Positions 278-1,225 of a stretch of DNA of 64,000 bases are shown here, piece after piece. Each line of letters opens with the position of its first letter. The stretch's first letter is position 1. Source of the DNA: Eledone cirrhosa (Eukaryota); NCBI GenBank assembly GCA_964016885.1, contig OZ024753.1, positions 21,886,001 through 21,950,000 of the forward strand, written 5' to 3'. The notes beneath the pieces were generated by a model that was given only the letters and a program-made list of their open reading frames with translations, was not told where the DNA came from and made no database searches. The position numbers and the translations under genes are program-made.

Positions 278-312
278 ATATATATATATATATATATATA
301 TATATATATATA
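278..312. repeat. (TA)n microsatellite, left flank of the ribozyme element
   Basis: Perfect alternating AT run of ~35 bp. Confidence 0.97.
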
Positions 313-760
313 GGATATGTGTTCCTTCACGCACAAGGCGCTAAGGTACGCATGTATTGTCCAACCAAATGCCAGTGTGGTTCAATGGCGGGTTAATAAA
401 TTAACGAGCCAGAACAAATATAAACAAGGTTTAGCAAATAATGAAAAAGTTTCAAAATAAATTTTAAAAAATTGACTTTACCTACTATAGTTACCTTTAC
501 CGATCGGTTTCGAATCCCAAAAATAAAACGGAGACCATACGGCCTTCGTTGCAAAGAAAGATTCTCGTCAGAAGGTTCTTTTCATTCAAAGAATATAAAA
601 TTCCTGAATTTAAATTACAGACTAGCGCTATCAAAACTGTTCCCGGGATGAGAGTGGATGATGTAGAAACAGGTTTATCAAGGGCCGAAGCACACTGGCA
701 TTTGGTTGGACAATACATGCGTACCTTAGCGCCTTGTGCGTGAAGGAACACATATCCTAT
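310..760. repeat. 70-bp perfect inverted repeat pair A (310-379) / A' (691-760)
   Basis: ATAGGATATGTGTTCC...GCCAGTGTG versus CACACTGGC...GGAACACATATCCTAT, compared base by base. Confidence 0.95.
493..576 (-). ncRNA. Type I hammerhead ribozyme, copy 1
   Basis: Reverse complement of 977-1060, with one change in the non-core stem II extension. Core CUGACGA...GAAA and the GUA site are intact. Confidence 0.85.
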
Positions 761-976
761 TACTACTACCTCCTCTAATGTTGAGAACAAATTTGGTCGT
801 TCTGACTGCTGCTAGCGATAGCTGTGGCTGGTTTAACCTACCTCCTTCTGCCTCTATCTTTGCTTCGGCCCTTGATAAACCTGTTTCTACATCATCCACT
901 CTCATCCCGGGAACAGTTTTGATAGCGCTAGTCTGTAATTTAAATTCAGGAATTTTATATTCTTTGAATGAAAAGA

Positions 977-1060
977 ACCTTCTGACGAGAATCTTTCTTT
1001 GCAACGAAGGCCGTATGGTCTCCGTTTTACTTTTGGGATTCGAAACCGATCGGTAAAGGT
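977..1060 (+). ncRNA. Type I hammerhead ribozyme, copy 2
   Basis: Stem I ACCTT(977-981)/AAGGT(1056-1060); core CTGACGA(982-988); stem II GAATCTT(989-995)/GGGATTC(1035-1041) with a G-C closing pair and an inner hairpin AACG-A-AGGCC-GTAT-GGTCT-C-CGTT; GAAA(1042-1045); palindromic short stem III ACCGATCGGT(1045-1054); GUA triplet with predicted cleavage after A1055. Confidence 0.88.
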
Positions 1061-1130
1061 AACTATAGTAGGTAAAGTCAATTTTTAAAAATTTATTTTG
1101 AAACTTTTTCATTATTTGCTAAACCTTGTT

Positions 1131-1225
1131 TATATATATATATATATATATATATATATATATATATATATATATATATATATATATATATATATATATA
1201 TATATATATATATATATATATATAT
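1131..1225. repeat. (TA)n microsatellite, right flank of the ribozyme element
   Basis: Perfect alternating TA run of ~95 bp. Confidence 0.98.

Follow-up and report, generated by a model that had tools for sequence, protein, structure and literature searches.

A young non-coding hammerhead retrozyme in Eledone cirrhosa with the insertion marks of Penelope-like elements

How do two overlapping copies of one non-coding sequence, each with a hammerhead ribozyme motif, come to lie head to head between two (TA)n tracts? The question is raised by an insertion near the start of a 64,000-nt stretch of Eledone cirrhosa DNA (contig OZ024753.1, positions 21,886,001 to 21,950,000; hereafter the window). 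Most of the window is a 28-bp satellite (4077-64000, ~2141 copies, 90% matches, strong GC skew), which occupies 94% of it and continues past its end; in the spacer between element and satellite lie imperfect direct repeats of 30-37 nt (2535-2633 and 2763-2822, 77-89%). An initial annotation had described the insertion as a twin hammerhead element and attributed it to reverse transcription of a multimeric or circular RNA, in trans, probably by the protein of a Penelope-like element (PLE). Our analysis supported that interpretation. Taken as a whole, the reading we hold with moderate confidence is that of a young, non-coding 483-nt hammerhead retrozyme, likely copied from a circle into (TA)n by a Neptune-type PLE protein acting in trans. 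We regard PLE-type mobilisation in itself as very probable and, given that, the template as probably a circle rather than a linear multimer.

Two arms of a 483-nt unit

Comparison of the window with itself revealed two pairs of inverted arms, both 99% complementary, at 418-692/861-1135 (275 nt) and 310-383/687-760 (74 nt). Segment B differs between the arms at 2 of 275 positions and segment A at none of 70. To number the unit we took a natural unit from locus L019 as reference, with position 1 at window 691. Aligned to it, the window reads as a minus arm [171-483, 1-70] joined to a plus arm [1-445], the same map as the order B'-S-A' (minus) and A'-C-B' (plus) proposed from the letters alone (Table 1). 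Segment C belongs to the least conserved stretches of the unit, with minor letters at 7.6% over unit 80-170. Because natural head-to-tail copies with a period of 482-483 nt occur elsewhere in the genome, the 483-nt unit is more than a reconstruction; tandem or permuted copies carrying both junctions are likewise present genome-wide. Target-site duplications are unreadable inside (TA)n.

Table 1 Features of the insertion and its flanks in the window
Feature	Position	Strand	Description
Left (TA)n tract	278..312		insertion target
Whole insertion	310..1135		483-nt retrozyme unit as two head-to-head arms, both RNA 3' ends outward
Left arm, 383 nt	310..692	-	unit 171-483 then 1-70; 3' end at site 2 (unit 70); tail-bearing
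Tail (S + A'), 108 nt	310..417	-	spans the gap between the two fixed 3' end sites
Segment S	380..417	-	hairpin predicted as GUUCUGG...CCAUUGAAC, immediately 3' of site 1
Mirror hammerhead motif	493..576	-	core from 571; predicted cut after 498
Head-to-head junction, two 5' ends	691..692		overlap 2 nt
Right arm, 445 nt	691..1135	+	unit 1-445; 3' end at site 1 (unit 445)
Segment C	761..860	+	unit 71-170, single copy (alignment to natural unit)
Type I hammerhead motif	977..1060	+	core CUGACGA 982-988, GAAA 1042-1045; predicted cut after 1055
Right (TA)n tract	1131..1225		insertion target

A descriptor scan gave one type I hammerhead motif per unit, intact in each arm. On the plus strand stem I is formed by 977-981 and 1056-1060 (ACCUU/AAGGU), stem II has 7 bp enclosing a 53-nt insert, stem III is palindromic, and the predicted cut follows GUA at unit 365. 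A 25-mer of the core had 954 exact matches in the genome (reversed control, 0), and 135 of 140 segments kept the core whole. The share of minor letters was 0.2% in the core, 0.7-1.4% in stems I and III and 7.0-7.6% in the 5' body. Across three clades of units described below, stems I and II differ but are fully compensated, and the core is kept. We called the hammerhead from the motif, the compensatory stems and this conservation, which together suggest that the unit is an active ribozyme. The Rfam check put forward in the initial annotation returned no hammerhead in window 1-3000; in four loci the motifs of the sister family, the third clade and PLEs were also unmatched, with a weak HH9 hit (E 0.47) elsewhere in L061. 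The predicted fold of the 121-nt hammerhead region was not a hammerhead and was no better than shuffles (z -0.25). The long stem II insert causes Rfam-type scans to overlook such ribozymes, and families of this kind are therefore probably undercounted. Close to PLE ORFs the descriptor scan picked up additional motifs that resemble hammerheads and belong to other families; some of them are canonical (L040, L063, L064, L066, L067, L068, L071, L076, L079).

As had been proposed, the unit is in practice without protein-coding capacity: its three ATG frames (73-128 aa) had no Pfam match, and the frame of 92 aa stays open in 22 copies out of 90. No ORF with reverse transcriptase (RT) and GIY-YIG domains, as expected of an autonomous PLE, was present in the window element.

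With the right arm as query, the genome (3.0 Gb, 1796 contigs) yielded 2011 candidates; among the 40 that were scored, full-length matches at 96-99% identity lay on many contigs. The family comprises about a thousand dispersed units, so that neither a single copy nor a one-off rearrangement describes it. Natural arrays hold 2-10 units with a period of 481-492, and in a 62-locus sample the arms consist of unit repeats only, with no LTR-flanked body. With a type I hammerhead in each unit, consecutive tandems, no coding capacity and dispersed multicopy distribution, the window family is a young non-LTR retrozyme, of a known kind.

It has relatives in the same genome. A sister family with units of 457-467 nt (L062 6589-7527 and L139-L158) was first found beside a PLE, and a third, larger clade with units of 519-560 nt (L179-L208, L209, L211) was found through its hairpin pattern, which had 10,425 matches (control, 1). 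Overall, these sister families span 457-560 nt and more than 10,000 motif matches. The three clades share one order: hammerhead, AT-rich stretch, site 1, a hairpin GUUCUG(G/C)...(C/G)CAUWGAAC, 70-95 nt, and site 2. The G...C form of the hairpin, typical of the main and sister families, had 1144 matches and the mismatched C...C form 28. In fetched loci, which were partly picked by such patterns, 246 of 246 hairpin matches were G-C or C-G. The swap amounts to a single compensatory change between clades rather than a series of independent ones. We propose the S hairpin as a candidate landing element for RT. A rod-like circle was not supported for the main unit, whose circular fold was no more stable than shuffles (z -0.96); the sister unit folds as a circle far better than its shuffles (z -6.6).

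Two end sites and their pairing

We then asked where the copies stop. From the 954 core matches we took the first 100 as an ordered sample; they lie on contig C1, at 62 loci. Among 89 arm 3' ends in it, 52 fell at unit 444-449 (site 1) and 27 at unit 70-78 (site 2), 108-116 nt apart, and 76 of these 79 canonical ends ran into (TA)n. No arm (0/89) ended at the ribozyme cut site, unit 365. The 5' ends were scattered over the whole unit; clustering of 5' ends at the ribozyme cut was considered and rejected, with only 3 TA-joined cases genome-wide.

The two sites are not paired at random. Head-to-head insertions made up 20 of the 62 ordered loci, of which 16 joined a site 1 arm to a site 2 arm and one joined two site 1 arms. 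Over 100 loci with 45 head-to-head junctions, 35 were mixed, 2 were same-site and 8 had another end, a mixed to same-site ratio of 35:2 where independent ends could give at most 50% mixed pairs (p 5e-9). Both same-site insertions of the main family were site 1/site 1. The sister family (12 junctions: 8 mixed, 0 same-site, 4 with another end) and the third clade (16: 14, 0 and 2) gave similar counts, to be read with the fact that these loci, together with 13 of the main family, were picked by the hairpin motif, a choice that favours tail-bearing arms and disfavours short site 1/site 1 insertions. The ordered 62-locus sample is free of that bias. All counts exclude repeat retrievals of one place (L005, L017, L023-L025, L029 and eight third-clade loci) and the near-duplicates L010 and L126. 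L006/L010 (G000:C2, 131.19 and 130.58 Mb) and L125/L126 are paired loci of equal insertion structure, which suggests duplicated segments or assembly duplicates.

These junctions bear on whether the window insertion is a local fold-back rearrangement or an assembly chimera. Both flanks are long (TA)n tracts, and the family appears in three sequencing runs of one study as short contigs, none of which spans the stretch. Yet 45 independent junctions obey the same end rule at different junction points, and the window arms differ at 2 positions, so we give an artefact almost no credence.

The copies thus carry the insertion marks of EN+ PLE machinery: two fixed 3' ends, a one-sided tail, 5' truncation, partial tandems and a microsatellite target. 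The same rule is seen in a PLE of the same genome. In 26 loci of a young PLE family (L061 3273-9315 and L214-L233), copies run out into (TA)n at either of two sites separated by 68 nt, and its 14 head-to-head loci included 12 mixed pairs, one with an end 9 nt short, and no same-site pair. Site 1 lies 82 nt after the cut in this PLE, 80 in the window family, 86 in the sister family and 57-81 in the third clade. Other PLE families in the genome also end in (TA)n.

Could another enzyme have left such ends? Twin priming during target-primed reverse transcription by LINEs also produces 5' inversions with two outward 3' ends, and what we take to be LINE-like ORFs lie in retrozyme loci such as L065 and L069. 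The retrozyme unit, however, has no poly(A) or terminal simple-repeat tail, both its ends are fixed internal sites, its arms overlap in sequence as those of twin priming do not, and its end rule equals that of a PLE in the same genome. Mobilisation by a LINE, or spread as DNA, is thus most improbable.

Our preferred account, PLE-type mobilisation, would run as follows. Tandem loci would be transcribed and their transcripts would cleave themselves into monomers, which would be ligated into circles. A PLE protein would cut both strands of a (TA)n tract, and each DNA end would prime reverse transcription at its own site on the same RNA, the two sites flanking two hairpins. Since both sites close with TA-like letters, a brief match with the target could aid priming. 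Both enzymes would move 3' to 5' along the circle over distances ranging from tens of nucleotides to many units, and the far ends of the two cDNAs would be joined, giving the head-to-head form with the tail on one arm. The window insertion would record one pass of 445 nt and another of 383 nt. Several steps have counterparts in an in vitro study (PMC11167929), in which a PLE protein cut and extended both strands of AT-rich DNA and started at two internal sites that delimit the tail. An earlier explanation of the inverted PLE form invoked self-priming on an antisense template (PMC3846280).

The template of the two arms

The initial annotation derived its RNA template from the way the arms overlap. 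The PLE half of that proposal gained from the insertion marks and their match in an intact PLE of the same genome. The overlap, taken alone, proves no circle: inverted arms with a one-sided tail are the ordinary form of a PLE insertion (PMC3846280, PMC8557442), and a linear tandem RNA would also yield such arms.

We therefore looked at variants within single insertions. In 22 of 26 inverted loci the distance between opposite arms was smaller than that to other loci, measured over the same columns (median 1.8% vs 4.6%); the 26 retain L091, L113 and L115, which are not simple head-to-head insertions. Tandem units behaved likewise in 29 of 33 cases (1.1% vs 4.1%). In 44 head-to-head loci, 146 minor alleles were found in both arms and 32 in one; L084, whose arms differ by 11.5%, is an exception. 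Seven arrays of at least three units had 28 variable columns, all of them single-unit changes, and 6 of the 7 fix a variant found in at most 5% of other loci. At L112, 10+2 units have 2 variable columns. Gene conversion could be an alternative source of the likeness between arms.

The sister family provides the longest example, a single insertion of 19+10 near-identical units at G000:C1, about 156.426-156.439 Mb. One variant there occupies ranks 3, 6, 7, 15 and 18 of one arm and rank 5 only of the other, and another change is found in two adjacent units. At L157/L158, unit position 76, at site 2, carries T-to-G in 6 of 28 units, in both arms and at non-matching ranks; a per-pass copying error, later conversion and assembly noise are all possible sources.

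What, then, of an uncleaved linear template? PLE machinery might prime at the same two sites on a tandem transcript from homogeneous master arrays, with circles as a side product. Such long homogeneous arrays are available, and the intact PLE of this genome yields the same head-to-head form. The anole PLE used mainly unprocessed RNA in vitro and had no need of cleavage (PMC11167929), and 8 of 9 Xenopus retrozyme dimers stayed uncleaved in vitro (bioRxiv 10.64898/2026.07.22.740005). Against this, the strong conservation of the core implies that cleavage matters. Every hammerhead core is intact in arms of 10 and 19 units, which is hard to square with a linear template, since as many ribozymes would have had to stay uncut. 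Rank-matched variants, the mark of a heterogeneous linear template, were rejected as a signal, for they are not in excess between arms (1 matched, 1 mismatched, 85 single), and in the 19+10-unit locus, a single case, the ranks are scattered. Linear copying alone would presumably neither lengthen arrays nor re-homogenise new variants. We consider a linear template unlikely, though it is the alternative we take most seriously. Repeated rounds on one monomer would explain the variant pattern, which is also compatible with a homogeneous linear multimer or subsequent conversion.

A candidate partner and comparison with known systems

If a PLE protein copied the unit, the genome offers many: a search for loci with RT plus a GIY-YIG domain at the C-terminus gave 10,595 candidates, of which 150 were scored. 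The young PLE family had 104 scored matches at 98-100% identity. In 20 of 20 copies, picked for long frames, RT to endonuclease forms one frame of at least 765 aa, typically 775 aa, with an upstream AUG region in another frame. L061 carries the CX2-5CxxC linker given for Neptune and Nematis (PMC8557442), and the family, with its RT and C-terminal GIY-YIG, appears to be of Neptune type. Its pseudo-LTR (pLTR) carries a U3-A8 minimal hammerhead with stem III GAAACCGGUA.

No DNA homology between unit and PLEs was found in 50 of the 150 listed GIY-YIG loci, compared by blastn and local alignment, or in the 26 young-PLE loci. The sole match in the 50 was the sister retrozyme, and likeness to PLEs in both sets was limited to stem III and YTTTATA at site 1. 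tblastx gave weak low-complexity matches only. The tails of PLE and unit differ (68 nt vs 108-116 nt), and no common hairpin was seen. A hairpin 4 kb from a GIY-YIG was rejected as a partner link, being a chance neighbour. PLE protein matches occur at 11 of 81 retrozyme loci, at distances from hundreds to thousands of bases. Insertion of retrozymes into the (TA)n that flanks PLEs, and the reverse, has built clusters at L062, L069, L083 and L222. The young Neptune-type family is a candidate partner only.

Might the unit instead be the pLTR of an unsampled autonomous PLE, the copies its 5'-truncated remains and the arrays a product of local unequal exchange? Truncated PLEs with paired hammerheads on opposite strands 100-700 bp apart have been reported (PMC4209133), and retrozymes resemble pLTRs (bioRxiv 10.64898/2026.07.22.740005); moreover, our comparison covered 50 of the 150 listed loci from the 10,595 candidates. 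But arms beyond one unit wrap from 483 to 1 into the next unit, no PLE ORF adjoins the unit in any of 81 retrozyme loci, and in some insertions (L112, L157/158) the two inverted arms are each several units long and almost identical, for which unequal exchange offers no simple explanation. We judge this origin improbable.

Returning to copying in trans by a PLE protein, we tentatively suggest a broader model, which we hold to be possible rather than probable. A dimeric PLE protein would sit on one circle and use its two sites to prime both ends of a double-strand cut, both enzymes rolling, which would account for inverted pLTRs, the one-sided tail and homogeneous arrays alike; the young Neptune-type family would drive a superfamily of more than 11,000 non-homologous circles by way of a landing site defined by structure. 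Both parties are present in this genome at a young stage, the retrozymes as near-identical arrays and the two-site PLE in more than 100 near-identical copies, so that start sites can be predicted exactly and a candidate protein can be named for testing in vitro. The finding bears on the identity of the mobilising enzyme, on the circular template (both proposals are in print) and on the inverted ends of PLEs with their one-sided tail. The retrozyme class, its twin-hammerhead look and the PLE link are already known (PMC7229834, bioRxiv 10.64898/2026.07.22.740005, PMC4209133). The window family, the end-pairing count and PLE end marks on retrozymes were described nowhere in the literature searched, which comprised main texts and few subscription papers. 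What gives the case its value is the rule of end pairing, together with a ready test system, more than the element itself.

How does the family compare with known systems? Non-LTR retrozymes were defined in PMC7229834, with circles shown in coral, mussel and axolotl; tandem cDNA from circles was proposed there, with PLEs as strong candidates. Their co-occurrence with PLEs in vertebrates, and pLTR homology, were reported later (bioRxiv 10.64898/2026.07.22.740005). Like the metazoan retrozymes of these two sources, the window family has non-coding tandem units with one type I hammerhead each, GC below 50%, no LTR features and coexisting PLEs. At 483 nt the unit falls inside the span of 51-972 bp given by Li, Clavereau and Pollet (2026; bioRxiv 10.64898/2026.07.22.740005) and exceeds the 170-400 nt circles of Cervera and de la Pena (2020; PMC7229834). 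Unlike published retrozymes, its stem II has an insert of ~50 nt and Rfam misses the motif; fixed 3' end sites, head-to-head insertions and (TA)n targeting are not described in the portions of the retrozyme texts consulted. Homology to pLTRs was reported for 24 of 57 Xenopus families (bioRxiv 10.64898/2026.07.22.740005), and none was found for the window unit in the PLE loci compared.

The non-autonomous Chlamys elements such as MRC1 (PMC8557442) are likewise non-coding dependants of PLEs with multicopy head-to-tail insertions. At the 3' end they are similar to the autonomous partner, and canonical hammerheads are mostly absent from them, whereas in the window unit the ribozyme is the best-kept part and partner homology was not found in the 50 PLE and 26 young-PLE loci.

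Head-to-head inverted pLTRs, a one-ended tail and a (TA)n bias have been described for PLEs (PMC3846280, PMC8557442), and the U3-A8 hammerhead variant in PMC4209133. Accordingly, the family shares with EN+ PLEs of Neptune/Nematis type (PMC3846280, PMC8557442, PMC4209133) partial tandems, 5' truncation, the inverted head-to-head copy, the one-ended tail, microsatellite targeting and a hammerhead that has a palindromic stem III and lies upstream of the 3' end. It differs from them in having no ORF and in a tail of 108-116 nt rather than 30-40 nt. Its hammerhead has a canonical C3-G8 core and a long stem II, unlike the U3-A8 minimal variant of the intact PLE here.

A biochemical parallel is the anole Poseidon element PAc (Frangieh et al. 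2024, PMC11167929), with two internal, tail-delimiting start sites downstream of the hammerhead, AT-rich DNA cut and extended on both strands, and a predicted dimer. For PAc no difference in start site between the strands was seen and cleavage was dispensable, whereas the window family shows a near-strict rule of one end per site and, unlike PAc, a non-coding template copied for more than one turn.
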